Assembly (NCBI GenBank): GCA_008632985.1
Contig: QPGO01000028.1
Span: forward strand, 491,598 to 555,597
From: Psammoneis japonica
Taxonomy: Eukaryota
Reading direction: 5' to 3'
Length of the DNA: 64,000 nucleotides
The notes under the pieces are model-generated. The model saw nothing but the letters and a program-made list of their open reading frames with translations. It was not told the origin of the DNA and ran no database searches. How positions within the stretch are numbered: the stretch's first letter is position 1; every line of letters starts with the position of its first letter. Positions 3,294-58,320 of the stretch are shown here, piece after piece. Position numbers and translations under genes: made by a program.

Positions 3294-3699
3294 CAATTCT
3301 GGATATCTGACAAGCGTTGACGATGCTAAGGTAGTAAACTCCCAAAGCGTTTGTCTCGTCAAGGACGCAATTCTCGTTCACAAATCGGCTTGTCTATCCG
3401 ACTCAAATGCGTGAAATTTCCACCGAATGTCGATTCTGTACTTCCCGTTCTGGCTACATTTCTGTTGTTGTTGGTACATGAAAGTGCTATGCTCCATTTT
3501 ACGTCTCCAAGCGAACGTTTATAAACGCATCTGCACCTTTTCCATTCCGTCCAATACGACCTCTCGAGTCATTTCTGGTTCGACACAAGAACGACAACGT
3601 GTGTGGCAAGCAGTCCATCGCCGCCACACATCAAAGAATGTCACGTCAGCTCCTTCAGATCTGTAGAGAGGCCGTCTGATAAAATCATCGTACATCTGC

Positions 3700-6600
3700 A
3701 TTCCAATCAACTGCTGAATCATCTCTTGCGTGTTCCATCATTGAGCCTGAACAAACACTCCTTTTGCAGTGAAATCCAGCCATTGCGCAACAGTCTAACA
3801 CAGGCACATCCAAGAAGGCCTCCTGAATGATGTCTCGCTGACTCTGCTTGTGCATGTCGTTCTTCTCTTCTGTGGTCATGACACGGATTGGGACTGTCGA
3901 AGAGTCATCATCATGTGTGCCCGGAGCATCATTGCCACTCAATAGATTCAGAGTGAAAAAGAGGTGAAAGGCTTCAACAAAGAAACAGAGCTGACTTCCT
4001 CACATGCTGTCTGCAATCAGCTTGATGTGGATTGGGAGATGGAGGCCTCTGTCTGAAAACCATCGAGTTTTGTCAGAGAACGGGCACATCATAAAATGCT
4101 GTGCCAACATTCTTTTCCAACGTCTGCATCAAAGCCATCTCAAGCCATTTTGTAGAAAGGTGGGATGGTTTTTGTTGATGCCCCCAAGGACCAAGTTCTC
4201 CTCAAGGTCCACAGCAACACATTCACAGCTCAAGTCACAAGGCACATCCACAAGACTGGCCTTGTCGATTCTGCACAAAAAGAGCATGTGGGCACACTCA
4301 AAATGTCAGAGTCAGGAAGCAGAAGGAAGAGGATGCAGGTGCGCAACAAATTCATGGGAAACAAAAGAGAGTGAAGGATTGTTGTGCAGGTGACAAGCAG
4401 AGACAATTGAGAAGTGGATGTTGAGATGACTTGCTGCTCCAGAGCCAAGCTGTCAGACCAGCACAACAGAATGTTTTTAAGATCCAAGCAGCACACCAAA
4501 ACAGGTGAGAGAATGGCGGCATTGCCCAGGCACCAATGGCTCCACAGGAAGCAAAAGCATTTGCAAGAATGAGCGTGTTGAGGGCAAGCCATGCAACACA
4601 AAAAAGGCCAGTCTCTGACTCTTGCTTGTTCTCAGCATGTTTGCAGTGTGCCTCTCTAAAGGTCAGACCATTTCACCAAGCTTGCAAAGCCAGCTGAGCT
4701 GAGCAAGTGCTCTCAAAACACCAAAAGACAAGAACATGCAGAAAAAAAGCAAGGCATTTGGGAAGGCAGGCTTCTTTTTTCTTTTCTCAGCTGTCTCAGT
4801 TTCTTCTGCCCTTCCATCCATGGCAACCTTTTGGGAATGTCATGCTGGAAAAATGAAAGCCAGCCTGTTGCTGACAATGTGAGTTCTTGTCACCCTTGCA
4901 CGCAATTGTTAAAATGCACCAACTCTGCATGTTTTGTGTGTCATCGCTGTCAACCTTCATGACAAACACCTCATCAAACCAAAGCATGCTTGTCATGTGA
5001 TTTGTGCAATCACTCATTTCACATGTTGCATTTTTTGCTGTTGTGTCAATGTTTTTATGTTGCACTGGTTTTTCACTTTCTCTCTCCACCCCCTCTGCTT
5101 GGCCAACTCACCCCCACATGCCAACCACTTGGCAGTCGAGTTTTCTCTCTCACATTGTTTCACACTTCTCAGAATTTTGCACAGCTGTTGTCTGCACATT
5201 TTTCAGTGTGTTCCTGCCACACATGCAAATTTCCACAAACTCATGGCAGCATGCCCTGTGGTCAAACATGTCAAGCTGAGAGTGTGCGCTGTTGTGGTTT
5301 GCATGTTCTGTGTGCTGTTCCAACCAGCCAACCATGGCAGTGAATGATTTTGCCCTTCAGTTGACAAGGTCAATCATGAGCCCTCTCATGAGTTTGATGA
5401 CAACTTCCTTGTGTTGTCCTGGCCATTTGCACCCACAAACAACATTGACAGAAAATCTCTGGCTGTCTTGCCTGGTGAGTGGGCCTCTGCATCATGACTC
5501 GGGGTTCAGGCACAAAAAAATCTTGATGAAAGCAAAGGGTGCACATCATGTTCATCACTGTTGAAAGGCAGAGAGGAAGCTCTTGCAGACACTTGTCTGC
5601 ACTCAACAAGACTGGGAAATGGAGGGAGCATTGCCATGATCTCTGCTGCAACCTTGAGGTGGTGGTGCAGAGTTTGTGTGCCAGATCATTGCTGGCAATG
5701 ATGACCTCAATGACCTGGCAGCTGACAAGCCTTGTGTCTCCACTTTTTGAAATGTGCCAGTCTCTTTGCCTTGATTGATGGCTGAGCACACTGCCTTTGT
5801 GGCACTTCATTGCCAAAGCTGTTGTTGTGTGTCAGATCTGCCAAAAGCAGAAAGACACAAGCCATTGGCTTTGCAGCAATTTTGCAAGGCTGCCACATGG
5901 GTGGAGCAGTGCACACTTGCCAACAGCTTTCTTGTCACATTTGTGGTGTTGAGTGATGCAGGTCAGAGGCCAGTGCTGTGAAGGCTTTGACTGCCAACCA
6001 CCCTCATGGCACTGCAGTTGTGAGGTGACAAAGGAATGCAATGCCAAATCCCAGCAAGAGGCTTGCAAAACAAATGCAAGCTCAATGCTGCAGCAAGCAC
6101 TTTGCAGGGGTTGTCCCGAAGATCAGTCCTGTGCCCATTCATGGTGCAGCAAGGAGCTTGCAAAACACTTTGCTGCAAAATGTGCAGCCAAAGGGCTGGC
6201 TGCTTGGAAAACAAACAAAAACAAGGGTGCAGGTTGAAGATGAGATAGAGCACCGGAAGGAAGGATGCTGACAAGGGCCCGCCAGCATGAGATGGCAGCA
6301 AGCTTCCTTTGTTTTCATCAACACTCTCACATTGCACTCTCACTTGTGTTTTGTGACTCCTCCTGTTCAACAAGTGCTTCTTCACATGTCCCTGGCAAAA
6401 TGGCCAAGACAGTGGCAAGCTCCAATCTGTGGCCTCCAGCAATGGCAGCAGGCAATGTTGCAATGACAAGGGAGGTGCACACTCACCCTTGCCTCCACAA
6501 TGTGGCCACTGTGTTGCAGTTGAGCAGCCAGGTTCAAACTTCTGTGTCCTTTGAAGTCTGTCAGGAGGGCCCAGACATCTGCTCCCGAGGGGCTGAATCT

Positions 6601-9600
6601 TGAGCCCCCCTCTCCCCCACTCAGAACCCCAATCACTTGTCATGGCTGTGCACGCCAGTGCCCCCTCAACACTTTGATCCATTCAAAAGTTGCCCAGCCA
6701 CCACTGAAGAAGTTGCTGCTCATTCATCACAACTGTGCACTGTTGCCAACATGACCAATGTGAGGCACATTCTGCACCACTCTGCCGCTGGCTTTTGATG
6801 CCTGGTGGTGAACAATTTGGAGCAATGGTGGAACAAGTTTGCCAACAGAGCCCCAGCAAACAATCTCTCAAAGGCACCTCAAGTCCAAGTGGAGCACCCT
6901 CATGCTCCAGATCATTGCTTGGATGCAGCACCAGCCATCTGACAAGAAAGTGCAGTCAGCAAGACTGGCTTGTTGGGCTGTCTCCATGTTTCTGTGCCAG
7001 TGCTGTGTCTTTTCATGCTGTTGAGGGAAGAGCCCCTGATCTCCAAAGCACAACAGAGCAGAACACTCTTGTGTTGTCTGGGTCCAAAAGCAAAATTGAG
7101 TTTGAGCACACAGCAGGGCAGAAGTGTGCAAAACCCTTGGCTGTAGATGTGGTCCAGCGGCAAGCTCTGCTCAGCTTTGCAAAGAAAGTGAGGCAACAGC
7201 AGGCTCCACTCAGCTTTGCAAAAATGAGGTGGAGCTGAAGAAGCTGCACAATGCACTGCTGCCCCTCAAACATGAGGATGTCACAGCACATGGCTTGCAC
7301 ATCTCTTGCAAGCAATGCCTTGTGGGCCAGAACAATGACAACAACTCTGGCTGCATCAGGAGCATTGCTGTGGTTGAGAGCTGAAGTGTGGTTGACAAAA
7401 AGATTGTGCTCAAGTGCTCTTTCAGTGCAAACACTCTTGACATTGTGATTTTTGCACTTGTTGACAGTGCGGTTGTTGTGAGTTTCTTTGTGTTGTTGCA
7501 ACCAACCAAATTGGCAAAGTGAGAACAACAGCAAATGAAACATGGTTTGTTTCCATGTGCACACATGCCCAAATTGACTAAACCAGTTGTTGTCCCATTG
7601 TCTCTTGCAGCCCATCTCACATCTTGGTGTTCTTGGCACTGTGCTGGCATGACACCATGCTCCAATCTTTTGTGTTTCAAAGAAAATCTGTTTCTGTGAC
7701 AGCTTTTCATTGTGAGATGTGACAGCAGTCCCTGGCAGAAAACAGCAAAGAAGCTGTCAGTTTGGCATGTCATTTTTGGCAAGCATGGTGCAACACTGCT
7801 GTTTCTGCTCACCTGTGTGTGCCACACTGCCATGCTTTGCTTCTGGCCCTTGGCTGTTCTTGTCAACTTGTCTGAGTTTCAAGATTAAAAAATGGCAAAA
7901 GTGTCAGTTTGTTGTTTGCAGCAAGCTGCCTTTGCCCACAACATGCTTCTGACCTCTTGCCTTTCCAATGGCTTTTTTGTTGGTGCAAGCAGAGTCTTTT
8001 GCCTTTGCACAATGTCATCATTGCTTCTGTGCCACTTGGATGCACCCATCACATGTTTTGTGTTGTTTTGTGTGGCAGCAATGTGCCATTTCTGCCATGC
8101 AGCTGAGCCAGTTGGTCTGGTTGTTGTCACCTGCATCATTTTGCAAGCAGCTTTTTTTCCCTTTCATCACATTCATTCTTTTTGAACTCTTAAATTGTTT
8201 GGGTTGACTTGTGAAAGTCATTTTGTTTGTCTTGCTTTGTTGACACAGCACTTTGTTTGTGAGCTGCTGCTCATTTGCCAGTGATGTGGTGTGCACCGAA
8301 AATTGTCTCAATGTCTCAGTTTGTGTGATGTTTGTGAGCTCTTGTCGAAAATGAGAATTTTCACATTTTTGCTGGTCTGTGCACCAGTTTGTTTGCATCG
8401 GTGGGGCTGCTGCCACAGCTGACCTTTGCAGCTGCTGCACACACACAAGCTTGCAGGCAGCAGGAGGCTGGAAAAGGTGGTCATGCTGAAACCAGACAAG
8501 CAAAAGGTCTGCTGGGTCAGTGTGGCTGCAGTGCTGGATGTGTGGATGAAGGGACTTCATGATGACTGGTGTGAACCAACCTGCTGGCAGTCTTGGGGCC
8601 ACCCCTCTGCAGCACTTTAAGGGCTGTGGCTGAGCACTGCAAGCTCAGCACTTTGGTGTTGTGGCCCCATGTCACCTTGTTCCTGACATTGTGGCTCTGC
8701 ACCACCTTGTCTCCAACTGTGGCAGACTGTGATTTTTCAAATTCCGAAGCATGATGGTCCCATCATCATGGTGGCACACCAAACAACCCGGCAGCAACAA
8801 GCTTTGAGGGCAGTGGCAACATCAGACAGACCCCGTGCAAGACTTTGCAAGAGCACCATGGTTGAGCGCTGCAAGGTCAATGTTGTGGCATTGTGGCCCC
8901 ATGTCACTTTGCAAGCTGCAGACAAAAAAATCATCAACCCCCACCCGCAAGAAGAATCATGCCATGATTGGCATCAAAATGCTGTGTGCCCCAGCAGCAG
9001 AAACACCACAGCACAGGGATTCATGTGGCACCCAAACCATGGTGGCAGTGCTTGTGATGAAATGTGGGGCAACATTGTGATGTAAAGAAAAACAGCCAGC
9101 ATGGGCAAGAAGCAGCCTTGGTGTGGCTTGCCAACAAGCAGAAATGTTGCAGTCATTCTCTTGTTTGACAAAATGACTTTCGAGACAAAGTTTGACACAG
9201 CACCACTGCACAGACAAGAGGAGGGGGGACCATGACTCTGAAAATTTTGCCACCCCATTTCTGGTTTGCTGTTTGTATGCAAGCCACAGGGTGCGATCTT
9301 TGCACAGCAGAGGCAAGCCAGTGCTGCTCTCCATTGAGGAGGAAAATGATCCCCCTTGCACCAAAAAAGAAGCCCGTGCACCACTTGACCACAGCTGAGC
9401 AGCTGCCATTGCAAACAGCAGTGTCAACTTGGTTGTTGATGTCTGAAAGATCCAAAGAGGAAGGAGGGGTGGGCAATGATGGATTGATGTGAGACATGAA
9501 AAATGCCCCCACACTTTAACAGCCAATTCTGGGACTGTGGCATGGGCTCTGAGCAAATCAAGGCATTTCTGTGTCCATCAGAACAGCATCTGATGGACGG

Positions 9601-12600
9601 ACTTTACTCTGTGTTGTTCTGCAAAAGTTTTTGTCATGGACAATCACCAGTTCCTGCCACAAAGTCAAATTCCTTTGCTGTGATGCACCATGAACCATGA
9701 CAGTTTGGATGCATGCTTTTGACATGGTGTGCATGCATCGTGGTGCTGTGCAGGGTCCAAAAAATCTGCCGCAGTGAATTTGTTAAATTTGCAATCAACC
9801 CAGATTGCGGAAGCAGCTCGGACCAGAGGTTGCACCCAGAAATGTGCTCCCATTCCTGATGTTTCTTCTCATCAAGTGAATCTGTTAGTCTGGTCCCTCT
9901 GTGGCTGGCTTGGATGACTTGTGCAATGCATCTGACAAACACAAAATGGTTGTGCAGAGGAATCACTGCGAATCAGGCAAAGGTTTCAGAGAGACATCAT
10001 TTCAGGTTAGTGGGCATGGTTGTGCAGTTGCAGCAAAGCCAACAATGGACCAATTGCAGCACTGTGCATCCCAGATGACAGCACAATCTCATCATCTCTC
10101 AGATGCTCAATGTCATCAAACTCCTCATCAGTGATGATGACAAACAAATGGGGTGTGCTGACACTGCATTTGTCGTGCTCCTCTTTCACTGCTGCAAAGC
10201 TGAGACTGGGAACCTTTCTTCTCTCTTGCACACAGCCCTTGGCAAATCACCCCTGCCTTTCCCAAATGAAAACCGCACACCCACCCCCCTTTCCAACTGT
10301 GATCATGTCAGCAAATGTTGCTCCCCTGCAATTGAGGAGGAAGCAACCTTTCTTGGATGGGATTGGGAGCCAATTTCAAGCTTGAATCAATCAAAGTTCA
10401 TCTCTGCAGCTTCAAGTCCACCTCTTGTGTTTTGAAACTCTGTCAATGGGAATGACAACCTCAGCATGACAAGCTCATTGTTCTCTCTGAGAACAATGCA
10501 CTTTACAGCAATGACACTCAGAGTGTTTTGCTCATTTTTGTCACAGCTGAGCATAAAATCAAACTTCTGCAACAGCACAGGAAGGCCCTGCACATTGCCA
10601 GCCTCAGCAAGAACAAGGAGCAAAACCAACGGAAACACAACTGCATTGTCTTGCACAAAGACAACTCCCTTGGTTTTAAGATTGCCAATTCTTCCACCAC
10701 CAACTGAGTCTTCACTGCCAATTGGCCATTGAAAGAAAGAGTGTGACACAAGAATTTTGCATGGTGCACTTTGGACCAACTCTGCAAACTGCCGTCCATG
10801 CTGTAAATTCACAAGAGCTCTGACACGCTCCAACAGGGCATGAGGTTGAATCATGTCTGCATTGAAAGCATCACCACGTGCACTTTCAATGTCAAGTTGC
10901 TTTCCAACAACTCGATGTAGCAAGAAATCCACCAAGCACCAGTGCAACAAACTCCAGATCCTTCTTGCACTTTTGTGAGACCCCGTCTGCTCTGTTTGAG
11001 TTGGCCTGGTGCAATGGATCAAAAAGCACCTCATGCACATGAGATGATTTCAGCAACAGCAGCGGCATCTCTTCTGGGGCCACTCTGCCAGAAGAGGCCT
11101 TTAAAAGATCATGCACAGGCCTAAAATTGGTCCCACTCAAAGTGCAGAACACAAAACCCTGGTGCTGTCAGTCAAATTCCTGCACAGCCACCAACACTTG
11201 CCTCAAAAGTGACGTCCTCCATCAAGCTGCATCACCACAATGGTTTCATCAAAGTTGACAACAACCATGGCTTTGGGATCCTCTCTGGTGATCTCACAGA
11301 GGACACAGCAGAGTTGGTTGCTTCCATTCCCACCTGGGAAATGGACTTTTCCATCTGTTGTGAGTGCCGTGAGCTGATGCGCAAGACTCATAGAAGGAGC
11401 TTGACACTCGTCTTCCATTGCAAGTTTGGAATGCAAGATCCGGCATTGTTGACCTGCACTGACACACACTTTGACCACCCAACAAAAGTCGTCCATGTGA
11501 GACATGTTTTCCCACAGCTTGTTGTTCTCATCAACATCTGCTGCTCTTGCAAACACCTTGCAACAGAATGTTGCAATGTTGTCTTTCCCAGGCCAGGCCC
11601 ACCAGAACAGGCTGCAAACTGCAGCCAGTGGTCATTGGCTCCTTTGTTGTGAAGACACTTGCAAAATTGGACAGTGGCATGCTTCAACAGTTTGTTGATG
11701 CTTTTCTCATGATTGACCAATTTCAAATGCTTGCCAAGGACATTGCCTGTGCATTGTTGCTGTGCCTCACTGTTGCCATTTCTGCCAAGTTTGTGGACTT
11801 CTTGGCCTCCAAGCTTTCCTGGTGAGATTCAGATGATTGGAAATGCATGTGCAATTGAACATCATTAGAGTGCAAGCATGAGAGCACAACTCAAATCGAT
11901 GTTTGACCAGCCCCACACACCAAGGACAGCACAAGAGCAACATTCAACCCACCATCTTGCTGCTGTTGTTTGGCAAGCTTGTTGCTCAAAGTCTGAGCAG
12001 TTGCATCAGAAAGACCATTTACATGCAAGACATCAGCACTGATTCTGTAGAGTGAGCCCGGATTGTGTCAAAACCCTGCTTGAACAAAATGCCGGCATGA
12101 GGCCCGCAACCCTGCCCATGCTTCCACCTGCAATCACAACCCCCATTTTGTCACCAAAATGCATTTCCAGCCAACTGATGTCACACCAATGCAAAGTTCC
12201 TGACAAGTTTTGGGGTCGCAAGCAGAGGCAGGTTGCGTTGGACAGAGCTGTCACTGAAAATCATCCCTCGTGCTTTCACATGCCATGAGGTGCTCCGCAA
12301 AAAGTTGGCTCCATTTTCAAATGCCCGACACCATGAACAGTGCATGCCCAATCCATTCTCACAAGACATTGGTCATGTGACTCACTTTCTCAACACCAAG
12401 ATTGGGTGGCCTTGTGATGACTGCAGTTGACCTCTTTAATGCCACAAATGGGCATGGCAACCCCAAAAAAAAAATCATTGCAAGCAACCCACTTTTTGTT
12501 TTCAGATTTTATGTTTGCACCTTTGAGATCAATCTGGAGCAGACAAAAGCAAGATGGAAGCTCAATTTGTTAATTCTTTTTGTGGGACAGCAGCAACAAT

Positions 12601-15600
12601 GTGATTTTGTCAACTTTGTTTGGTTGCTTTTTTTTTTTAAATCACACACACCAAGAATTTTGCAAACAAACTTTGCCCCACATTTTTGCTCCAATCCAAC
12701 TCTCTCCAAATTGACAATGTGAAAGTGGAGCCATTGCAATCACTTCATTGTGTTCTCAAAAGATCCCTTGGATCCAAGTCGTTGCTCTGCACAGCAAAAC
12801 TTGGGACCAGCATCCTTTGCTTTCTTGAAGACTGCCACCACAGCAACTCCCTCTCCACCTCACTCTCAGTCAACACACAAAACCAACCTCCTGCATCCAC
12901 AAATTGATTGTGTTCATTGATTGATCTTTGCATTGCCACCAGCTTTGGCTCAGCAGGTGCCAAAATTCTGGCAAGCGGGTGGTGGACAAAGAGCCGGCAC
13001 ATGACATGGCATCATGAACAACTGAATTGGCGCCTTTGTCAACAACTCACCACAAAGTCAAAGGCACAGAGGAGAACACATTCAGACAGTCCACCTGTCA
13101 AACAGGTGCCAAAAGACAGTGTGTCAAATGCACTCTTGTGAAAACAAAGGGAGCTTGGATGACTTTTGCAGCATCACAACAATTGCCATCATTGGCATGA
13201 GATTTGATCAAATTCCTTGCAACAGCATGGCAGCAATGGTCTGTGCACTCATCAGGAGTGTGCCTGCCATGCCAGCTTGGATTTGCTTGACCCTTCAACC
13301 AGCCACTGGACTTGAGCAAATCTCTGTGGGTGTAGATTTGCTTGCTTGCATCACAAGTTTGTTGACTGGGGTGTTTTCAGATGTGGACAACAAACAATTT
13401 GCACAATTTTGTTTTGGAGCACTCATTTGCCAACAGCTCTGGGGGGCATTGTTGCAATTTTGAAAGTTTGGTGTCAACTTTTGACATTGGTTTTTTTGCA
13501 TGCTTCATCTGTGAACAGAGAAGAGCCAAATCTCAACCTTTGACAATGAAATTTGTCACAAGTTGCTGTCACACAACAGAGCACCAAATGGTTGGGACCC
13601 ATTGCTGTGTTGTTGTGCCTTCAGCACAGATCAGGGAGGAGATTGTGGTCTGTGCCTCTCCCCTGCACAAGTGGGGGTTCACTCATGATTCTGCCAATGC
13701 GTTGGATTCTCCGTGTTGCATCAGCACACAAAGCTGCAAGCAAGCCTTCAGAACAAGCCAGGCAGCAAGATTGTTCTTTCTTTCATCAATGACATGCTGC
13801 AAAAGAACGTCAATGAGTTGAGAGCAAGCTTTCCTTGCAGCTCATTGCTGCCCACCCTTCATGGCTCTCTGCCCACCAAGCTTTGCACTTGGGTTCCCCA
13901 AAAGCATGAGCTCCAGCTTGCTTGAGGTCTGGTTTCTTGTGGCTTGTGCTGCAGCCAGCCAGAGAGTGCTGCCAACTGGGAGTGCTTCATCCACCAGAGA
14001 AAAGAAGGCTGGAGAGCAACTCGTCCACAAAAATTGTCGCCAACACTCACAGAAAGGGGCCACAGGCACACCCCTGCTGTTGCACAGACCCCTCCAGTTT
14101 GTGTGTTTTTGCCAGCAAAATGTGCCTTCAACCTTTGTCCATCAAGCCAGCAGGCATGAAAAACATTTCATGTCTGAGAAAGAGCCAGTGTTGGGGCTGG
14201 CAAACAACATCACCCTGCAATGTGACTGGTGCAAAATCTGCGCAAGTGCACAGATGTGCTCTGGAGCTGACAAAAAACAAAAGCAGGGACATGGGGGGGC
14301 AAGCAAAGGTGACAAAAACAAAACAAAACAAAACAAAAAGCAAGCCAATGACAACAAGAAGAGATTGGAAGCTCAGGCTCAGTGGCTTGACTGTGTGTGC
14401 AAGAAGATTGACATTTTTGCTGTGGAGCTTCCCACTTTGAATGACCAGTGTAAAAATGCTCTCAAATTGAGGGTGTTCCATTGGTTGCAACTGAGCACAC
14501 TGTGGTGCACACACAGAACATGTGTCAAAAATCACCTCTGCCAGTCTCCAGCACATGAGCTTGAAAGTCAACCACCCTTGTTGGCTTGCCCAAGCAACAT
14601 GCATCTGCACAAATTCACAGAGCCACTGACTGTTGTCCATTGGCCGCTTCATTGTTGTTGGCACACGGTGATGAAAACAGACTGTTTGAATTCAAAAACA
14701 AGAAAATTGAACAGGAGCAGATCTTCTGAACCTGGCAATTGATCTGCCAGCCCCATTTTTCCAAACAGTGCATTGCATGTTGCTGAAAACCCCCTGCCAA
14801 CAGAAGATTGGGCCAGCCAGAGCACTTTATTTCAAGAGCACACATTGCAACACTTGGTGCTTTCCAAAAGAATGCACACCGCGCCATTGTTTGATGATCA
14901 CTGCCACATGGACACAGCCATCTTGGTTGATCCATCCTCTCAGATCATGGGTGCAACACAATCAGAGCCATGGTGCATTGGACACAAAGACACCACACAA
15001 ACAATTCAAACTCCTCCAGTCTTTGTCCACCTCACTCATCATCAGTGCTGACCTGTGCAAGAGAGCTCCAAGAGGAGCTCCAAGAGAAGGAATTGCAGCT
15101 GATGAGTGGTGGAGAAGTGCCACCTTTCCAAGCTTCTCAACACCAGTGTGGGTGTTCAGTCTCAGGCTCGAAAGCCAGCTGTGAAAAGAGCAAGCTTTTT
15201 CAGGAGCTGCCAATGAGCTGGGGAGAAAAAAGCACCTCAGTTTGCATTGTTGCTGGTGGCAACAGCAGAATCACAAATTCTTGCTCTGCCAAACAGCCGC
15301 GCCATTCAGGAAGGTTGTTGAGTGCAAAAGATGCAAACAAGAACCCTTTTGCAAAAAGGAGGGGGTTGTGGCACAAAAGCTGCTCAAAATCCACCCACCA
15401 TGGAAAGAACATGAGGGCCAACCAAAACGCAGCTGTGCGCCATTTCGCTGCAAGCAATGCAAGAAAGAATGTCAAAAAATGCCAGGTCATTGTCAGCCCC
15501 CAACTGAGGAAGGTGTGAAAGACCTTTTTCATGCTTGTGCTTGTGCCTCAAAAAACAACAAGCCGTCTGCAACACAGCCATCATGTGTCCCATGCCATGC

Positions 15601-16020
15601 TGCTGTGGCTGCTGCTGCCATCAGCACTGTCTCACATCAAATGGCGCCACATGTGCACTCTGCCACTGACATTGAAGATGATGTCCTTTCTTGAGAGGCG
15701 CCAAAGAGAGAGAGATTGTTTGCACAAAAAAGTTGGCTCCTGCTGCAAGAGGGAAAAAATTCATGCTCTGTTCTGACTTGGCCTTTGGCTTCACATCTTC
15801 TGGACTCATGTCCACCCAGGTTTCATGCTGCCTTGAATGAGAGATCAGGGGTGGCAACATCTCCTGGCCAAACATCGTTTGTTGCCGTGGCCACGCGGCA
15901 ACACAACAACGGAGCTTTGATGTGCGCATCAGAGGGGGGGGCTGAAATCATTGTCAGGAAAATCAGTGGAAGCAGCCAAGCTCACAGCTGCTGGAGAGCA
16001 TGAGGTGGGAGGTGCGGTGA
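3700..16020. other. CpG- and TpA-depleted hypermutated block B (~12 kb of decayed genes/TEs)
   Basis: Hand count in 5401-6000: 0 TA and 1 CG. No coherent long ORF. Boundaries are graded and approximate. Confidence 0.9.
10007..11726 (-). pseudogene. Decayed Crinkler-like P-loop NTPase gene with putative C-terminal restriction-endonuclease-like domain
   Basis: Colinear frameshifted fragments: Walker A CSGGPGLGKTT, Walker B VVVNFDET, then TLSGT, then a terminal EEHDK...HLFVIITD...IGPLLA segment. The Crinkler-family call rests on my recall of that architecture. Confidence 0.6.
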
Positions 16021-33959: not shown

Positions 33960-35130
33960 TGCTGTGCCAGCTAGAGAGGAGTGCCAACGTTTGACCTCTC
34001 GCTCTGCCTCTCTTCTTCTGGAGTCATTCTTCCAAAGAAGCAAGAGCTGCAAGTTGAGCAGATAATTGAACAATGCTCCCACCTCTCCCACCCTCTGAAG
34101 CCTTGCTGCCTTTCCAGCACGGGCTTGGGAGACAGCAGCAGCGCCACCATCCAGAGATCGTGAGTCTCGCCCTCTTTCCACATCCTGCTTTCCATTGAGA
34201 GTTGTGCAGAGTGCACCTGGACAGGTTTAAACTTTCTGTGAGCACATCATTGACCATCCTTGATGCCAAAGTGGAGAAAATGATGCTCATGTTTTAAAAC
34301 AGAGTTTGCGAGCCTGGGACAGGCACTGTGGTGGTGGAAGAGGTGCTGTGAGAAACCAAGAGCAACAAGATCACCCTGCAGCCATCATTGAAAAACAGAA
34401 GGCAATGAAAAGAATCTTGAAAAGCAGAGAGTTGCTGAGGGTGGGAGAGCCATGCACGCCAAGCACTGGGGCTTTAGACAAGAGTTGGTTGAAGCACAGC
34501 TTGTCTGTCTGCCCAGCTGGTTTTTTGAATGGAGGGGCACAAGCCAAATGCTCCAGCAGGCATTGGCACCATTGTCAAGAACAACAAAAAGCGCAACTCT
34601 GAGGACTGTTTGCCCTTTGTGGCAAGAGCGCAAAGCAGGGTGCTGGTGGGTGCAAGCAAGCAAGAGGGTTGACAAGAGCCAAACACAGCTGAGTTGAGTT
34701 CAAGCAGAGAAAAGCAGTGTGGGACAGCTTGATGTCAAGCATTGTTTGATCTGGTTTCATTGCACAAGTTGCACATGTGATCAAATCTGCACTGTGCATG
34801 GACAGGTTTCAGCCAGGAGAATCACATCAAGGCAATGTGACAGGATGTCAGAAACGACACTCTTTTGAGTCTCTGCAGGTTTGAGTGGAAAGCACAAGTT
34901 GCATTTTTCACAGTGGGCAAAAGAAACAAGTGCTGAACACAGGCAACCAATTCATTGCAATGGAGAAAAAGAAAAGGCAGTGACACCCCACGTGTTTCTG
35001 TTGTGCAGATCTCACAATTTCTGCATGGTCCGTGAGCGGTCTTCTGTCAGGTGCCTCTTGATGGGTGACAGTTCTTTTTTAGCAGAGTGCTGAGTGCACA
35101 GCCCTGCCAATCACTGCAGAGGTTTGCACA
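33960..35130. other. CpG- and TpA-depleted hypermutated block D
   Basis: Only a handful of TA, mostly in TTA/TAA context, and few CG over ~1.1 kb. Original content not recognised. Confidence 0.85.
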
Positions 35131-35349
35131 CATCGTTGTACGAAACATGTTTGCGGCACCGGTAAAAGGCAACGAGGGCTAACCACCTGGGAATCCCTCT
35201 AGAGTCTCTCTAAAGCTAGTGAATATGTGCTCTCTAGTGAGCAGAGGGTTGACACAGCAAAATCGCGATCTGGGAAGCAAATCATTTGAAATTCAACAAG
35301 CTGTACAATTAATTCATGGGCTAAAAATCATGAGCACAGAAAGTGCGAC

Positions 35350-44935: not shown

Positions 44936-46339
44936 TCAAAAGACGCGAGCCACCTCACGAACAACCCCACTACAGTTCATACATGCCACCTCTCCAATGG
45001 TCTTGTCCTTGTAGAGGAGGCGTGCACATTCCATGCAAGTAATGAGTTTGTAGCAACAAGTTGACAACACGATGGCCTTGTTGTCCCGGCAAACGTAGCA
45101 GATATTATCATCGTTTTCGTCCGCAGTCTCATCCTCACCACGAAGTTTCAACTCAATAGTGGGATTAGGATGGGCCGCCGCCGCGGCTGCGGAAGGAGCA
45201 ACAATCACAGGTGGAGGCTGTACAGCTTGGAGTGGTTGATGATCATCACGGCGCTGCTGCTGGGCCTGCTGCTGCTGGGCCTGTTGCTGGATCAAAAGGC
45301 CCTGCTGCTGGGCTTGTTGACGAACGTCACGGTGTTGCTGTTGGATCACACGGCGATGTTGCTGGATATCACGCCGGTACTGTTGCATCTGTTGTTGGAA
45401 CTGTTGCGCATTCTGAGCCATGTGCAATTGCATGTTTCCCACACGCTCCATAAACTGTTGTTCCCGAAGGATGCGCTGATTGCGCTGTTGTTCTCTTCGT
45501 GGCGGTCGTGCCTGCTGATCGGTAGGCATGCCATTGATCGTGTTGCCCGTGCCATTGACAGTGCAATCCTCGCCTGATACTGCATTGTTGTTACCGGTGG
45601 CACTAGCGCGATATCCATCTACTGTGTTATGATCGCCTCGGGCCTTGGCCTGTCGTCCACTCACTGTATTTTCATGCCCTATCGCTTCTGAATACTCTCC
45701 GCTTACATTGTTTCGATTGCCTCGGACTTCGGCATGTCGTCCACTCAACGTATTGTTATGTCCGTCGACTTTGTTATTATCACCAATAATGACGTTGTAG
45801 TTGCCATCTACTCTGCTCTCATGTCCCCGAACTTGATTGTTGTCTCCAAGAACAAGAACTTTCGTGTCTCCTTCGACCGTATTGTTGTTTCCAGTCACAT
45901 TTGAGTGCGTCTCACAGCCAGCATTATTGAGACGGAGTGTGTTTCCGTTGCCCCCGACATTGGCGTAACTATGTATACAGGTGATTTCGTTGTTGTTACC
46001 TGTAACTGTCGTTAGTTCGTAACGGCCGTTTTGCGTTCGGTGATCCTCATGACGATCGCGTATGATGTTGTGGTTCCCATAAACCACAACATTAGACCCA
46101 TCAATGGTGTTGTCGTCATCATAACTACAGGTGATATCGTTGTTGTTGCCTGTGACGGTCATTCGAATAGGACGGCCGTTTTGCGTTCTCTGACCACTAC
46201 GACGCTCGCGTATGATATTGCGGTTCCCATATACCACCATATTAGACCCAGTAATGGTGTTGTTATTGCCGTAGATTGTGAGATTCGAACCATCAAGAAC
46301 AGCATCGCTACGATTTATTGTGGACCGAGGTTCCGCCAT
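44936..46339 (-). CDS. NxVxG-repeat beta-solenoid protein with Gln-rich linker and C-terminal RING-like finger
   Basis: Starts MAEPRST. About 250 aa of heptad-like G-x-x-N-x-V repeats, a polyQ region, then CYVC...TCC...CMEC...CMNC. Confidence 0.8.
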   Translation of the reverse strand: MAEPRSTINRSDAVLDGSNLTIYGNNNTITGSNMVVYGNRNIIRERRSGQRTQNGRPIRMTVTGNNNDITCSYDDDNTIDGSNVVVYGNHNIIRDRHEDHRTQNGRYELTTVTGNNNEITCIHSYANVGGNGNTLRLNNAGCETHSNVTGNNNTVEGDTKVLVLGDNNQVRGHESRVDGNYNVIIGDNNKVDGHNNTLSGRHAEVRGNRNNVSGEYSEAIGHENTVSGRQAKARGDHNTVDGYRASATGNNNAVSGEDCTVNGTGNTINGMPTDQQARPPRREQQRNQRILREQQFMERVGNMQLHMAQNAQQFQQQMQQYRRDIQQHRRVIQQQHRDVRQQAQQQGLLIQQQAQQQQAQQQRRDDHQPLQAVQPPPVIVAPSAAAAAAHPNPTIELKLRGEDETADENDDNICYVCRDNKAIVLSTCCYKLITCMECARLLYKDKTIGEVACMNCSGVVREVARVF

Positions 46340-46779
46340 TTTCTTCGTTACACGGGAACGCGTTTTCTGCTGCTGCTGTTGTTGTTGTTGTTGTTGTTGT
46401 CCGCAACGTGGAAGTGCTGCGTGTCGTCCAAAGGCGAACAATAGTATGATATAAAGTGTATCAACAGTGTTCACAAAATGGAACAGATAGGCCTTGCCAG
46501 AGACGTCGTCTGAGAACGAGACCCTTGGTTTCGATGGAAATGAAAATGAAAACAACGTTTTCAGTGTTGCTGCTTGCTCAAGTTTTGAACCACGATCGAT
46601 CCACGTGATTCCGCACGCACGCAGATCGTGGCGGCCGCCAGCCCGGCGCGCGCCCGCCGTTGGTTGCGGTTGTTTCGTCGTTACTGGTATTGGTCCCGTG
46701 CGTGCGGTGGCGACCGCGCGAGCGCACGCACGCACCGAAGCTTGAGATTATTTGTCGGTCTGTAGGGCTACGTGGCTGT

Positions 46780-49400
46780 GAGAGAACGCTTGCAACATGG
46801 TGGCCACACTGAGACTTGAATTGTTGGTCAAGTGCCCAAACTGGTAAATTGTGAAAATCAATGGAGTTTGTCACAGTGGGTTCTTCCACGCCCAGTTTCC
46901 AGCAGCTCTCTCTCTCTCTCTCTCTCTCTGCAGCCCTCTGAGGAGCGGCCAGCAGTGTGCAGCAGCAGATGTCTGCATCAGGGGCAATCTGCTCTTTTCT
47001 GGAACACCAAAAACATGGCCAATCAATGTGCAGCAGCGTGCTGTGAATTTTTTCCCCTCATTGTCTCAAAGCTTGACAGAGATCATTTCAATGCATTGTT
47101 GGGAGAACCTCCTTGTGGGGCAGTGACGTTTTCAAGCCTCGAGGGTGCCGAAAATGAGCAAAAGCTGGAAATTCGACAAAGACACACCGCCACATCTTAG
47201 ATCTTGGCCTGATTGCTGCACTTTGGTTTCTCAGCCACATGGTGGCTGGGTGCTGGTGGTGGGGAGGGGCCTGGCATTGCTCAGGGGGGGTCAAGAACGA
47301 GGCACCAGTGACGACTCCTTCTGCCGCACCAGAGTGCAGGCTGAGTTCGTCGCCCCCAACCCCAAACAAAAAACAGCGTTTTTGAAAACAGCCAAAAAGT
47401 CAGCATGGACTTTTTTGCACTTGCTGCATGTTGAGAAGTTTTTAACTTTTGTGATGCATGGAAAATGGTGCCTTCACCATCTTTGTTGATGAGACATTTC
47501 ACACATGATTTTGTTGGCACCCTTCAGACTGTTGTGCTGTGACATCACTTTTGTTGTTGGTGCCCATGCAGGATTGGCGTGAGTTTGCAAAATGGCCAAA
47601 CTTCTGCTGTTGCCAACTGTCACTCTGTCAACACCCAGATTTGGCCTGTTCCAGCTCCAGGTGATCCACTTTTCATCACGTTAAAGTCCTTCATTTTTGA
47701 TCATTTCGAAAATCGAAAGGTGAGTGCACACCCGAGAATGCATGTAAAGTGAGCACATGGAGCACCTGGAGCTGGAACAGGCCATTTGCTGCCGATTGAA
47801 TTTTGCCATTGATGTCAAGCACACCATGTGGCAGCAGTGCACTGCAGCTGAAAAAGTGGTGGGAGATTGGCAGTGGCAGAAACAAGTGGCCTGGAGGTTG
47901 CCCACTCCTCTTGCCATGTGCAACAGCAAAACTCTTGTTGAGCTGTGCAACATTGCAGCAACCTTGAGCAGCCAGCATGTGGTTGCCATGGGCTGTGTTT
48001 TCATTGCTCTTGACATTGGCGCACAACTGCAGCAGGTGATTTCATTGTTTTGTTGCCTGTGACAATCAGTCACATGCCAAGGTTGTTTTGCATTTGGTGA
48101 CCACCATGATGCTTGCACATGGTGTTGTGATTCTCATGAACCACAGTGTTGCCTGGAGACCCACTGACAGCATTGTTGTTGTCACAGATTTCAAGACCCC
48201 AGTTGTCAAGAATGCAGCACACACAGTGGATGGAGGTTCCACCATTTTCTTCATGAAATGCTGGTGCTTCTTCTGTGCCACTGCTGCTGTTGTTGTCTGC
48301 AACATGAAAAAGTGCTGCATGTTGTTCAAAGGCAAATGGCTGCAAAGTGTCAACAAACACTTTCAAATTTGGCAATGGCTTGACTTTTTTAGCTGCTCAT
48401 GAAAACAAAATGAGGATGTGCTGCTTGGCTGGGGCAATGCTTGAGAACACCTGTTAAAAGCAAGGTGCTCATCCAGAACTTTGTTCATGTGCTGTGAGAA
48501 AATGGCTTTGACAAATGTGAAAGCTTTGCAGCTCAGCAATGTCGTCTGGTTGTTGAGTTTTGTCAAATTCCCGTTTTTGTTCCATGCACCCCCCACTTAA
48601 ATCAATGTCATTGTTTTTTTTTTTCAGCAAGAAAGTGATGTGCTGCATGAAGAACAGTGCCAGTGCAATGCTCAAAAACAACACTGCTGCTTGTTGATGG
48701 AGCGCAAGGTGTGCTTTTCTTCTTGTGCAGAAACTTGCTTGTGTGCTGCAAGCAGACGGCCCTGGCAAACACATCATGCTTTGCAGCCCAGCACAATGTC
48801 TGGTTGTGAGCTTTGTTGACCCTTGTTTTGTGCATTTTCCACATCAAATCTGTGCCACCACTTTCTGCCTTGATGGCATGGTGCTCCTTGAGAGTGCTTG
48901 TTGACAACAAGGGGTGGCTGCTGCTCATCCAGAACTTTGCTTGTGTGGTGTGCTGTGAGCAGATGGCTTTGACAAACACATGCTTTGTGGCTCAGAAACA
49001 TCTGGTTGTCATTTATGATGCAGTGCTGAGTTGCATGGGAGAAGGGCAGCAAAGATCTTCTGCACAGGAGGACACATTTTTTTTGATTTTCTGCGTGTCA
49101 TCTTCTGTGCAAAATGGCATGTCTCGCAGGGGCAAACTGCTTTCAAATAAGATTTGAAGATGTGGCAACAACAAAGGAGTCATCTCATTGTGTTAAAGCT
49201 TGACAGAGTGAAGTGATGTTGGGAAAACTTGTTGTGGGCCTCCTCTTTCACAGCCTCGTCTGGATGGAGGGTCCCGAAATGAGCTCTGGTGGCTGGCGGC
49301 TGAAGCGTGCGCGAAGACGGCGGAAATGCAAAAAAAGGAAAATGAAGAAAAAACAACCTCTGTGGACAACTATGGAATCCAAAAAAAGACGCTGAACCGA
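46780..49400. other. CpG- and TpA-depleted hypermutated block F
   Basis: Near absence of TA/CG. Contains a decayed paralog of the neighbouring gene and a diverged direct repeat (ctcatccagaactttg...tgtgctgtgag at ~48468 and ~48924). Confidence 0.88.
47950..48360 (-). pseudogene. Hypermutated paralog of the 5' part and upstream region of the NxVxG/RING gene
   Basis: 48098-48136 aligns without gaps to 46191-46229. gaggttccAccattttcttcAt vs gaggttccGccattttcttcGt spans the ATG. Upstream sequence also aligns. Confidence 0.85.
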
Positions 49401-51339: not shown

Positions 51340-51520
51340 CCTCAAGCGTCGCCAACAGCACAGTGAGTTGAACGCATCCATCAATGCCCCAGCAGGTGGT
51401 GGAGCATCAGACAACAAACAAGAGGACTCTGTCAAGAAGAAGGTGACTTCTGAAGCTGCAGGAGCATCTGCCTCTGGGGCCATGACATTTGCAGATCTCA
51501 GGTTGTTGCTTGGAAAGCAC
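51340..51520 (+). pseudogene. Hypermutated copy of the 3' end of the SNF2-family gene
   Basis: Aligns to 57608-57788 (LKRRQQ...AMTFADLRLLLGK vs LKRRQQ...AMTFADLKLLLGK*). Confidence 0.9.
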
Positions 51521-52440
51521 TTCCATCTGCTTGCTTTTGCACACCATGATGAGGCAAACAGTCAATCAGTGTGAGCACTGGTGGCAGGAAACAATCTCAT
51601 TTTCATTGTGGCAGAAGAACAATCAGCAAAGTGGCCAGCATGCAAAGTGTCCAGGGAGCGTTCAGAATTGCTGGTTGCTGGAAGAGGACAGGCCAGTTGA
51701 CCCAAAATGCCTCCAATTGGATGATGCCTCTCAAAGTGCTGCTGTTGAGAAGTGTGACCCATGCTCAATTTTTTTGGTTTTGCCAGGTTGCCAGCTTCCG
51801 AGAGAAAAGGGTTTGTTGCTTCTTTGTTTCCCTCCACAGTGCAAAAATTGAAAATCACAATGACCAAGTTTTTGTTGAAGTGGTCAAAAGGGAACTCAGG
51901 GGCAAAAGGAGAGTGTGGGGTGTGTCAGAGGGCAGTTGGGATGGTGGTGAAGAAGGGTGGGCCAGCGGCATGGACAGGCGGCAGGAGGAGAATGTGCGAT
52001 GCAGCAGCAGCAGGGTGGCAGCAGACCGGAAAGGTTGGGGCAAGTGGGCAGGTGGTTGAAGAGGTCAGGGCCAATGTTGAGGCCAAGGAGTTGCTTGAGC
52101 AGCCCAGGATTGAGGAAAAAAGAGAAATGGCAGGATCCGAAGGGGTCAGGAGAGAGTTGCTTCCAAGAGGCATCAGCATGAGCGCAAGGAGGCCATTCTT
52201 GGATGGAGAAAGAAGGGAGGGTTGGTGTGCGGAGAGCAGGAGGCTTCTTGGGAGAGTCAGCGAAATTTGAGGGAGCAGGCCAAGGAGGCTTGGGAGGAGG
52301 GCGAGGAAGAGAGACAGAAGCGTTGTCAGAGTGGCCAAAGAAGAAAACATGAAAAATGGCAACCAAGCCTCCAAGAGGCAAAATGCCAGGCAGCAGCAAG
52401 GTTGATGGTCCAACTCGTGAAGATTTGCGCGGGAAAAATC
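51360..52440. other. CpG- and TpA-depleted hypermutated block G
   Basis: No TA seen between ~51335 and 52440, and few CG. Confidence 0.88.
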
Positions 52441-55600: not shown

Positions 55601-57788
55601 GGACAAAGACTGCCTCCCCGTTGTACGTTCGCTCATGTCTGCTGTTTCAATTCGCCATAGCAGGCTCCAAAAGCGGGTGGCAGATGGATCTCCACTTGTG
55701 GAATTGCCGCCACGTACGGAGCAGTTCGTTGCTGTGCGAGAGCCTTCTGATTCACACGAGACTTTTATCAATCGATGGCTAGAGGCAACAGCGGGGAATC
55801 TGCTTGACCGACTTGGTCGCATGGATGTTCGTATCCTCGGCCAGATCCTTCAGCTGCGAAAGGTCGTTACGTCGGGTGCTTTGCTGTCTCTCGAGCGCGT
55901 CAACGAAGCCCAAAAGCTCCTTGCTAGAGAGGATCTACTTTCTTCGGGTCCACTGCATGAGTTTCGGCAGATGTCGATTCGATCGGCCACGCTCGAATTC
56001 AAGCGCCAAGCTCATCTGAGCTCTGTAATTTTGCAAGAACTGAGTATGCTTCAGAATGGCGTGGCTCTATCTTCTTGCTCGTACTGCAAGGGCCCTCGGA
56101 TGCCTCCTGTGTACCTTACCTGTGATCACTCACTTTGTTCCAGATGTTGTAAGAGCCTCATCAAAACAACTGGTAACGTCGTTTGCCCCACCTGTCGATC
56201 TGATGTTCCTGTCGGCGAAATTGTTGAGGTGCTGCCGACTAATCCGAATATTGGAAGTGTTCAGGCTCCATCTCTGTCATGTGGCGATAATGTGCCTCTC
56301 GACCTCACCATGACTGAAGAGGAGCAAATGACTAACTTATTGAAGCTCACCGACGAGGATGGTGCCGCCGTTGGCCATCAGCATTTTCCAATCGATGTTG
56401 ATTCTGACAAGCCCCTTACCAAATATCTCGACGCCGATGCCGACTTTCAGAAGAACATGAGTATTACTCACACCCTCGACTCGCTCAAGAATCTCCCTTC
56501 TCCGAATGTATCCGTTCCTCCGTATCTGCTTGCCGATTTCCCACACGTGCCGAAAGCACTCGCCAAGCATATCTATGCATGCCAGGAGCACAGAGAAGGC
56601 CCGAGCGCAAAGATCAAGGCGATTGTTGATGAAATCAAGAAGATTAGGTCGTCGTCGCTCGAGGCCAAGATCTGTGTCTTCTCGTCGTTCGCCGGATGTC
56701 TCAATGAGCTTGAAGAAGCTCTCAGTTCCATCACTTACGACATCTTGATGGAGACTATCGGAAAGGGAAAATTGAAAAAAGGGGATGAAGTGACAGAATT
56801 GCAAAGCGGCCGTGTTGGAAAAGTGAAAAGCGACTCGTCCTCTTCAACCTGGGATTCTAAGTATAGGATTGTGCTCGAAGGATCGGAGCAGGTTACTGTC
56901 TTATCCCGGCGTGAAGTCGCCCTCGAACCTGCTCGCGTGAGGCGCGTTCCTTCGACTATGATTCGAAGAGATAATGGCACCATTCTAAGTGTTAATGGCT
57001 CCAATGACCGTTTTGAGACAGGCGACCATGTTCAAAGCAAACGCCCCCCTGTACCGTCGACCGAACTGCGTGTCGGCTATTCGGTACATGTAGAGGAGGG
57101 CGACCAGTGGCATACAGGCAAAATCACGGCCGTGTACAGAGGCGAGAACGGAGTTTGCTATGACGTGAAGCAAAGCGCAGCTGATGGAGGCCGAGACATG
57201 AGCAAGGTCCCGCCGTGTAGAATTGAAGACCTTGGCGATATTAATTCATACCGCCCTGCTGTCATCCAGAACATTTACTCTGATGGCACTAGCGTTGCTC
57301 AGTGGGATGATTCGTATGCGCATGCAATCGGCTACGTACGCCTTGACGGTTCGGCTGGCAACGCTGAACTGCGAGGCGAGAAGCTCAATGTCTTCCGAAA
57401 CGATCCTATGACCTCAGTTGCATTGCTAACCAAGAGAGCAGCAGGAGTTTGCCTCAATCTTACAAACGCAAACTATGCCATAATTATGGAACCCTCCGAA
57501 GATGCACACGATGAGGTTCAGTCCATTTGCCGTGTCCATCGTATTGGGCAAACTCGCCGAGTGAAGGTTCTCAAGTTTTTTGTGGAAGGAAGCATCGAGG
57601 AGCGCATCCTCAAGCGTCGCCAACAGCGTGGTGAGTTGACCGTATCCATCAACGCCCTGGCTGGTGGTGGAGCATCAGATGACGAAGAAGAGGAAGCTGA
57701 TTCCAACAAGAAGGAAGCTTCTGACGCTGCGGTATCTGCCTCCAGGGCCATGACATTCGCAGATCTCAAGTTGTTGCTCGGAAAGTAA
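52615..57788 (+). CDS. SNF2-family helicase with RING finger (Rad5/HLTF/SHPRH-like) and N-terminal PDZ-like domains; exons 52615-53712, 53882-54810, 54916-54926, 55027-57788
   Basis: LRDYQKETVGWM, GGLLAEEMGLGKT (after splicing), TLVVLPVSLLTQW, WHRLVIDECQ, LSGTP, RING CSYC...CDHSLCSRC...CPTC, RLDGS, LNLTNAN and RVHRIGQTRRV. Canonical GT-AG introns keep the frame. Confidence 0.9.
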
Positions 57789-58320
57789 AAATAGTGAGCA
57801 CCGGCGCCACTAGTAGGAAACAACTTTATTTTCATAGCGGTACAACGACTGAAGTGGCTATCGCGTAACGTCTGTCTACTAGTGTGTAGAACTACCTCTG
57901 GAGTAGAAGTAGAAGAGGATAGGATTCCCTTGCGCGTTATGCGGGGTCCATTGACTCAAAACGCCTCCCGTTGGTCGATACATTTTGAATTGCAATCTTC
58001 GAGAAGTACGATTCATACTCAATTTTCCTTGTTTTGCTAGGTAGCTATAGAGAAAAGGGTTTGTTCCCTTACAATACTAAGATTATTGTTGATCGGTAAA
58101 TGCTTTTACTCTTCTTCTCTTCCAGTGGCAAACAGGGTGTACTTAATCATCAAGCTGCTCCCGAGTCCAACTCAGGGCAGACGAAACAAAGTGGAAAGTT
58201 GACAATGCCTCCATCACACCCATAAGAATTAATCCCCGCCATCCCATGAACGTTCCAACCAGTTCCTACTCGGCGTCATTGTTGTTGGATTGCTCGTTCG
58301 ATCCTTGGTCGGCTTCCCCG

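Follow-up and report, generated by a model that had tools for sequence, protein, structure and literature searches.

A stretch of 64,000 nucleotides from the diatom Psammoneis japonica (NCBI GenBank assembly GCA_008632985.1, contig QPGO01000028.1, positions 491,598 to 555,597 of the forward strand), referred to here as the window and numbered from its first letter, contains five kilobase-scale blocks in which the dinucleotides CG and TA have nearly vanished and TG and CA have risen in their place. Block 4 houses a converted, broken copy of the 5' end of a beta-roll/RING gene that stands intact nearby, block 5 a converted copy of the 3' end of an SNF2-RING gene, and block 2 a decayed P-loop NTPase gene. 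The domains and their sharp edges, the direction and the context of the changes, and the dead genes among the contents are all observed directly in the sequence. As an explanation, we hold it to be somewhat probable that two transition processes, namely CpG decay and a TpA-specific A:T>G:C change, are aimed at the same intergenic domains of this diatom chromosome.

Composition of the depleted blocks

The blocks were defined by two-state segmentation on CG/TA within the 64-kb window, and all five are located between intact open reading frames (ORFs). Block 1 (1..2236; 32 CG and 9 TA) runs off the left end of the window, and block 2 (3692..15875; 12,184 nt) contains 91 CG and 39 TA beside 1366 TG and 1456 CA. 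Block 3 (34001..35133) has 12 CG and 5 TA, block 4 (46788..49256; 2,469 nt) has 27 CG and 11 TA beside 319 TG and 252 CA, and block 5 (51374..52415) has 12 CG and 0 TA. Together they total 19,064 nt, or 29.8% of the window, with sizes from 1.0 to 12.2 kb and edges that are sharp to about 100 nt.

The summed density of CG and TA is 1.1-1.8 per 100 nt in the blocks versus 8.4-10.3 outside, and that of TG and CA is 19-23 versus 14-16, with a G+C content of 0.47-0.52 both within and outside the blocks. TA makes up 0.34% of dinucleotides in the blocks versus 3.8% outside, CA and TG being raised. In 500-nt bins, the observed/expected ratio is 0-0.3 for CG and 0-0.1 for TA in parts of the window, and that of TG and CA is near 2. 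The longest run without any CG or TA measures 617 nt (5502-6116, in block 2), for a median spacing of 8 nt and a chance expectation of about 1e-27. TA-free runs reach 1,192 nt, and 25 of the 26 that are at least 250 nt long lie in, or reach into, the CG-poor blocks; conversely, no CG-free run of at least 250 nt with normal TA was found in the window. The only TA-free run of that length outside the blocks (27484-27751; 268 nt, with 9 CG) lies just upstream of a BipA-type GTPase gene.

A simulated 50:50 conversion of every CG and TA to TG or CA in the window's normal DNA brought its k-mer composition closer to that of the blocks, the correlation rising from 0.74-0.77 to 0.94-0.97 (k=2-4). Simulations with one rule gave correlations of 0.87 for CG alone and 0.82-0.83 for TA alone. 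The two losses are partly separable, in that the residual density relative to normal DNA is 15.8% for CG versus 8.9% for TA, and in that eight of the 15 listed clusters of at least four residual sites consist of CG only and none of TA only. Residual CGs tend to lie in small CG-only clusters, for example at 739-825 (6 CG), 1135-1224 (7 CG) and 47298-47378 (6 CG).

One consequence for annotation is that the blocks contain many long spurious ORFs, because TA-free DNA has no TAA or TAG; the first 16.2 kb alone (1-16200) holds 56 stop-to-stop ORFs of at least 100 amino acids. Gene callers could mistake such ORFs for genes.

Converted copies and a decayed gene

The intact source gene of the first pair lies at 44936..46339 on the minus strand and matches Pfam PF21300 (E=8.9e-22). 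Its product starts with a beta-roll of the LbR_Ice_bind type at the N-terminus, is rich in Q in its central part and ends in a cysteine-rich C-terminus. The first in-frame methionine is at 46339 and, in the translation, no in-frame ATG lies upstream of it; therefore, the approximately 100 nt of upstream DNA shared with the copy are leader and not coding sequence. The converted copy, also on the minus strand, spans 47969..48350 and was delimited by blastn, purine/pyrimidine (RY) recoding and alignment. It comprises a relic 5'-untranslated region (about 48246-48350), a relic ATG (48245-48243) and relic coding sequence (47969-48242), and the matching segment of the gene (45915-46452) reaches into the 5' leader. 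We read this segment as a dead, truncated tandem copy made up of the 5' leader and the first ~275 nt of coding sequence. The leader of the intact gene also carries a (TTG)n / (CAA)n run at 46360-46408, in the frame of the ORF and upstream of the first ATG, at which contigs built from a DNA run, X1, are cut; in the converted copy, this run is shortened and interrupted.

The two members of this pair are 66-69% identical by blastn and 85-89% identical after RY recoding. A local alignment of 46101-46440 with 48001-48336 contains 91 mismatches among 321 sites, comprising 62 transitions and 29 transversions. None of the 23 CG steps of the gene is kept in the copy, where 12 read CA, 8 read TG and 3 are otherwise changed; none of the 12 TA steps is kept either (6 read TG, 4 read CA and 2 are otherwise changed), so that 30 of 35 sites have become TG or CA. 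Other steps are retained much more often, namely TG at 27/36 sites, CA at 13/17, AA at 8/12 and TT at 22/30, and the difference between CG/TA (0/35 kept) and the other dinucleotides (157/273 kept) has a Fisher p of 1.5e-12. This tabulation by dinucleotide over the whole alignable pair extends an earlier note on the same DNA, which had reported from a 39-nt example that every CG and TA of an intact gene segment is converted in the copy. The strings quoted there are indeed present at 46191-46229 and 48098-48136 and differ at 11 sites, eight of which fall on the intact segment's 5 CG and 3 TA; farther upstream, 46400-46435 and 48296-48333 likewise read as quoted.

The direction of these changes can be read from a tandem repeat of about 150 nt within the gene itself (R1, 45955-46124; R2, 46105-46274; 78% identical by blastn). 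The gene has two units of this repeat and the copy has one, which in a three-way alignment is about as close to R1 as to R2 (10 versus 12 diagnostic sites); the copy is therefore an old duplicate. At sites where R1 and R2 agree, the copy keeps none of 7 CG (6 have become TG or CA) and none of 3 TA (2 have become TG or CA) versus 9 of 11 TG and 4 of 4 CA, and the reverse pattern occurs at no site. The polarity asserted in the earlier note accordingly stands for the pair as a whole, but its 39-nt example is a weaker guide, with only four of the eight sites securely polarised; at four of the eight, an outgroup paralog, R1, carries TG or CA, which is not the case for the pair as a whole.

The second pair repeats this pattern. 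Its intact source is the 3' end and downstream flank (57608..58070, plus strand; Pfam and alignment) of an SNF2/RING/helicase gene, whose ORF at 54969-57788 carries the Pfam domains SNF2-rel_dom, zf-C3HC4 and Helicase_C. The converted copy lies at 51340..51822 on the plus strand and was delimited in the same way as the first (blastn, RY recoding and alignment). The homology covers the last ~180 nt of the gene and ~280 nt located 3' of the stop codon, and identity is 81% and 70% by blastn and 91-92% after RY recoding. TA is kept at none of 22 sites (17 have become CA or TG) and CG at 3 of 22 (12 have become TG or CA; Fisher p=2.6e-14), and the three retained CGs are all at the left end, where the edge of block 5 cuts through the copy. 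At sites other than CG and TA, 22.8% of positions in the first pair and 18.2% in the second are divergent, and the other dinucleotides are kept at 57% and 65%, respectively. Over both pairs, TA is kept at 0 of 34 sites versus about 20 expected at the retention of other dinucleotides; therefore, the loss of TA goes beyond ordinary decay.

A third line of evidence is a decayed, frameshifted P-loop NTPase gene on the minus strand of block 2 (9989..11783), recovered by phmmer, BLASTP and tblastn. A 220-residue ORF within it (10390-11049, minus strand) gave 27 phmmer matches in a representative library, the best with P0122 (E=3e-41), and BLASTP showed 52% identity to a homologue over 155 residues; tblastn with ten homologues then traced a nearly full-length gene over 9989-11783, in pieces in several frames. 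Where the homologues agree on Tyr, none of 6 residues is kept (CAY in three cases, TGT in one and TTT in two), and where they agree on Arg, 4 of 12 are kept, the others being replaced by CAR (five), CAT (one), TGC (one) and AGT (one), which encode 5 Q, 1 H, 1 C and 1 S. Thus, 7 of 12 conserved Arg positions now have CAN or TGN, and 4 of 6 conserved Tyr positions have CAY or TGT, while other conserved residues are kept at 9/9 for His, 7/7 for Cys, 3/3 for Trp, 19/23 for Phe and 45/53 for Leu. The family is small, with intact members in environmental and diatom data that give at most sub-threshold Pfam matches to AAA_22 and ATPase_2; one diatom homologue bears the UniRef name 'Crinkler (CRN) family protein', which is a label only. 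As judged from sequence, the direction of change from CG and TA to TG and CA is supported by the paralogous repeat as outgroup, by the second pair and by the protein outgroups of this decayed gene.

It was Pfam that pointed to the decayed gene, in that NPHP3_N and DUF7791 were among four sub-threshold matches of 71 block ORFs. A further 32 minus-strand block ORFs, searched with E up to 1, gave just weak P-loop matches and none at the curated cut-off, and a word-based search with a 306-residue ORF (13822-14739) scored none of 506 candidates. The identified content of the blocks, which accounts for the smaller part of their DNA, consists of two host-gene fragments and one decayed P-loop gene.

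These polarised changes bear on the possibility that no special process is needed, i.e., that the blocks are foreign or transposon DNA with its native composition, or old DNA that has drifted neutrally. The blocks are non-coding and old, as the 18-23% divergence at other sites indicates, and TA is already low in the normal DNA of the window (observed/expected of about 0.4-0.8), both of which would suit such a view. However, the conversion is polarised in host-gene fragments and in a decayed gene of host type, TA falls far short of the retention expected from other dinucleotides, block composition equals that of converted normal DNA, and the edges are sharp. We therefore regard an origin without a special process as very unlikely. 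CpG/UpA avoidance of the kind seen in RNA viruses was also considered and rejected, as this is selection on expressed RNA and the blocks are broken non-coding DNA with polarised changes.

Extent and targeting of the conversion

The earlier note had taken host-gene duplicates, including non-coding upstream DNA, to be the targets. Its first element is borne out, as DNA derived from a host gene has been converted together with ~100 nt upstream of the ATG, but duplication as such does not appear to mark the target. The conversion is restricted to one copy of each pair; in the aligned part, the intact partner of the first pair still has 23 CG and 12 TA, and that of the second has 22 of each. In addition, block 4 (2,469 nt) exceeds the ~380-nt homology within it by a factor of about 6.5 and extends more than 1 kb beyond it on each side. 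A negative control is provided by an inverted repeat in normal DNA (arms 23119-23887 and 24502-25271, 96% identity), which has 605 consecutive identical columns (6-610) and is unconverted, with 42 and 42 CG and 40 and 38 TA in its two arms. These arms diverge only at their inner ends, and each has an internal repeat of ~180 nt. With single-copy conversion, the length of the block, the unconverted 605-bp repeat and the position of all five blocks between intact ORFs, targeting looks regional rather than homology-triggered.

RY recoding was also applied to a self-comparison of the window. Beyond the two pairs and the internal repeat of the beta-roll/RING gene, three matches exceeded the control maximum of 51; one of them lies within block 4 (48468-48624 versus 48722-48871, score 69) and two in normal DNA. 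No further pair of block and normal DNA rose above 51 in this comparison, the match of 9126-9209 with 16057-16143 scoring 49. The match within block 4 belongs to a set of three diverged repeat copies of ~80 to 155 nt on the plus strand (48468-48624, 48722-48871 and 48922-49002, within 48466..49009), for which the RY-coded blast scores are 69, 40 and 38, such that the first pair alone stands on its score. TG and CA are swapped between copies at 6 of 28 and 4 of 19 TG/CA columns versus 5.2% and 2.5% expected (p=0.003 and 0.001), and these swaps are the expected result of independent resolution of ancestral CG or TA after duplication. Tandem Repeats Finder returned two trivial rows for 46700-49400.

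In repeat-induced point mutation (RIP), known from Neurospora and other fungi, C becomes T chiefly at CpA, which creates TpA, and both copies of a duplication are mutated. The DNA described here resembles its products in having undergone irreversible, block-wise transition mutagenesis of non-functional or repeated DNA, with homology lost to ordinary BLAST. A defence of this type, in which duplicated DNA is recognised and then hypermutated, could also account for the finding that two of the five blocks contain fragments duplicated from genes 2-6 kb away, that block 5 starts ~30 nt into the second copy, so that its left boundary nearly coincides (within ~30 nt) with that of the homology, and that the block 4 repeats were converted independently after duplication. 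However, the type of mutation is the opposite, as TpA is destroyed here while CpA and TpG accumulate. Moreover, one copy is intact in each pair, the partners being in ORFs with Pfam domains, the perfect 605-bp repeat is unconverted, conversion is not confined to the duplication, and the rest of the block DNA, apart from the block 4 internal repeat, has no partner above the control score within the window. In favour of such a defence, DNMT4 enzymes related to RID have been reported in some diatoms (PMC9998398). Overall, we consider homology-triggered hypermutation to be distinctly unlikely.

Block 4 also holds an insertion resembling a miniature inverted-repeat transposable element (MITE) at 47642..47784, with 27-nt inverted ends that are 96% complementary. 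This insertion retains CG and TA, six residual sites being clustered at 47679-47746, and it looks younger than the conversion because these steps are still present. Many X1 contigs branch or end at the insertion, as for a dispersed repeat, with joints at 47660>47763 and 47731>47763.

The blocks are reproduced by contigs built independently from raw reads. Run X1 has 91% of the sampled words of block 4, and its contigs span all of 44900-52600, where they differ from the window by 5 substitutions and 5 one-letter gaps and bridge the junctions between blocks and normal DNA. A single contig of 6,109 nt starts in block 4, crosses the normal DNA that follows, takes in block 5 and ends in normal DNA, with 1 other letter and 2 gaps; therefore, the assembly is not chimeric. 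The five substitutions (47005, 47054, 47320, 47323 and 48895) all lie in block 4 and affect no CG or TA; allelic variation or leftover errors of the assembly may account for them. An artefact introduced during assembly or polishing, or by the calling of modified bases, is also difficult to reconcile with the indels and transversions of the copies (29 transversions in the first pair) and with the frameshifts of the decayed gene. The read platform is not on record and X1 is possibly the window's own source data, which would speak for an artefact; nevertheless, we rate it as extremely improbable.

Contigs of X2 cover 44958-46573 and 49395-51197, which are the two flanking gene units, and X3 yielded none, which has no bearing on expression. 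The block edges at 46788, 49256 and 51374 lie 215, 139 and 177 nt outside the X2 contigs. Outside the blocks, long intron-free ORFs encode a ribosomal P0 protein, a BipA-type GTPase, the SNF2-RING protein and MATH-BTB proteins. The P0 protein best matches proteins from diatom transcriptomes, the closest alignment being 86% identical; all legible source labels of these matches are those of diatoms, and the label of the top-scoring one was confirmed in the taxonomy. A query of metagenome contigs with P0 found three loci, one of them on a 1.1-kb contig from a relative with 75% identity and the other two distant.

Two processes or one, and what they would mean

In the explanation that we favour, CpG would change to TpG or CpA, most likely by deamination of 5-methylcytosine (5mC) on silenced DNA, and TpA would change to TpG or CpA by A:T>G:C transitions that affect no step other than TpA. 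Both processes would have run nearly to completion in five kilobase-scale intergenic domains, guided by some feature of these domains, probably a silent chromatin state delimited by the transcription units on either side. The end state would be DNA without self-complementary pyrimidine-purine (YpR) steps, with TG and CA doubled and G+C unchanged, in which all TAA and TAG stops and all Tyr codons are lost and most CGN Arg codons rewritten, such that the coding content is destroyed.

The CG half of this scheme has an ordinary candidate, 5mC deamination, because diatoms put CG methylation on silent elements; the available part of one study describes DNMT5-dependent CG methylation of diatom transposable elements (PMC9998398). 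The change of CG to TG or CA in the two copies (20/23 and 12/22 sites) is like the methylation-driven CpG decay of non-expressed DNA in vertebrates and plants. Unlike the present case, that process leaves TpA alone, and methylation of the blocks is here a presumption.

For the TA half, the only precedent found in the full-text literature is a preprint on Bigelowiella natans (Mettrop et al., bioRxiv 10.64898/2026.01.13.699255), which describes how integrated DNA of giant viruses and virophages is locally hypermutated from TpA to TpG or CpA. In mutation-accumulation lines, 230 of 231 mutations in two viral regions were A>G or T>C, all on TpA, at a rate of ~6e-7 per site per generation, and its authors propose an ADAT2-like adenine deaminase (10.64898/2026.01.13.699255). 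The present case shares several of these features: an A:T>G:C change at TpA yields TpG or CpA (here, TA has become TG or CA at 10/12 sites in the first pair and 17/22 in the second), and the changes occupy discrete, kilobase-scale nuclear regions in a host from the supergroup of stramenopiles, alveolates and rhizarians (SAR). There are also differences. In B. natans the process is ongoing with a measured rate, and the giant-virus region still has 3.3% TpA in the part of the preprint seen, whereas here only a saturated end state is visible. CpG is erased here over the same domains, while the word CpG occurs 0 times in the preprint text that was available. Furthermore, those parts of the blocks that could be identified here are fragments of host genes and a decayed gene of host type, no viral domain having been found, and the host is a diatom, a stramenopile, and not a rhizarian. 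Full-text literature searches, which do not extend to subscription-only papers, returned no report of a TpA-directed mutation process or of CG/TA-free blocks in diatoms.

An RNA-level origin of the TA changes would be ADAR-like A-to-I hyper-editing of transcripts, with a preference for a 5' U, followed by reverse transcription and insertion. TA>TG does fit the ADAR neighbour preference given in the portion of the B. natans preprint available (10.64898/2026.01.13.699255). However, TA>TG and TA>CA both occur within each copy (6:4 and 5:12), so both strands were affected, and the converted domain includes flanking DNA unrelated to the gene. In addition, the first copy consists of a 5' end and leader and is no 3'-anchored retrocopy, and the edge of conversion falls inside the second copy. 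Such editing is highly improbable as the source of these blocks.

Another possibility is that a single enzyme or lesion pathway acts on both self-complementary YpR steps and flips CG and TA alike to TG or CA. Candidates would be TET/JBP-type oxidation, converting T to 5-hydroxymethyluracil (5hmU) or 5-formyluracil (5fU) at TpA and acting on 5mC at CpG, or a DNA deaminase of both A and C. CG and TA losses share the same domains and edges, and within each pair they have like strand shares: expressed as plus-strand pyrimidine changes to others, these are 8:12 for CG and 4:6 for TA in the first pair, and 9:3 and 12:5 in the second. The accessible text of a study on dinoflagellates places 5hmU on transposable elements, overlapping 5mC, and mentions earlier reports that it occurs preferentially at TA and TC (PMC11572971), and the B. 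natans preprint refers to ADAT2 enzymes with deaminase activity on both A and C of DNA (10.64898/2026.01.13.699255). The dinoflagellate mark is a thymine modification on silent repeats in another SAR lineage. As an epigenetic mark, however, it does not itself change the sequence; the part of that study seen mentions no T>C change as a result (PMC11572971), and nothing in our data shows 5hmU in diatoms.

Against a single pathway, TA is more fully erased than CG, with CG-only clusters making up eight of the 15 listed and TA-only clusters none. The strand pattern is weak as well, the totals being 12:18 in the first pair (p=0.36) and 21:8 in the second (p=0.024), and it is reversed in the decayed P-loop gene, where R has become CAN in 6 cases versus TGN in 1 and Y has become CAY in 3 versus TGY in 1, a count biased by what aligns. 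Finally, the B. natans preprint, so far as its text was available, offers no evidence of CG removal. We therefore judge a single pathway to be unlikely.

Several observations nevertheless weigh against the reading of two region-directed processes. The strict co-extension of CG and TA losses fits one mechanism as well as two that share a target. Both polarised copies are old, so that slow decay rather than a burst could explain the loss of CG, and for TA their age gives a lower bound only on the excess in rate. The MITE-like insertion, with its CG and TA, means that the process is slow, episodic or no longer active at that place. The blocks hold less AT (0.052 versus 0.070) and more GC (0.076 versus 0.059) than the two-rule simulation predicts, and they contain no viral or transposon Pfam domain, none of the 71 block ORFs of at least 100 amino acids reaching the curated cut-off. 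X1 may be the window's own source data, and a sequencing-chemistry error may then have escaped the comparison with it. Moreover, we infer the 5mC step and the silent chromatin state, as we do the enzymology of the TpA step, whether adenine deamination or thymine modification, and any function in defence.

The conversion has some practical consequences. Converted DNA evades similarity searches, and RY recoding is a simple means of recovering dead genes and repeats from it. In addition, before/after pairs such as those described here yield a polarised mutation spectrum without a second genome.

At a wider scale, one could imagine an ancient system, present across SAR and common to diatoms, chlorarachniophytes and possibly dinoflagellates, that marks CpG (as 5mC) and TpA (as modified T or A) in unwanted chromatin, the mark leading to the permanent erasure of CG and TA. 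This proposal is speculative, and we consider it unlikely at present. If true, it would constitute a second, mechanistically independent counterpart of RIP, directed by chromatin, and the window would display its saturated end state over almost one third of the sequence.

The finding would extend TpA hypermutation from a rhizarian to a stramenopile and tie the TpA process to CpG loss. The mechanism would become testable in organisms with genetic tools, as regards the enzyme involved, the mark that guides it and the number of pathways, one or two. If general, it would add a mutational layer to genome defence in diatoms, alongside DNA methylation, in a major and well-studied group of phytoplankton.

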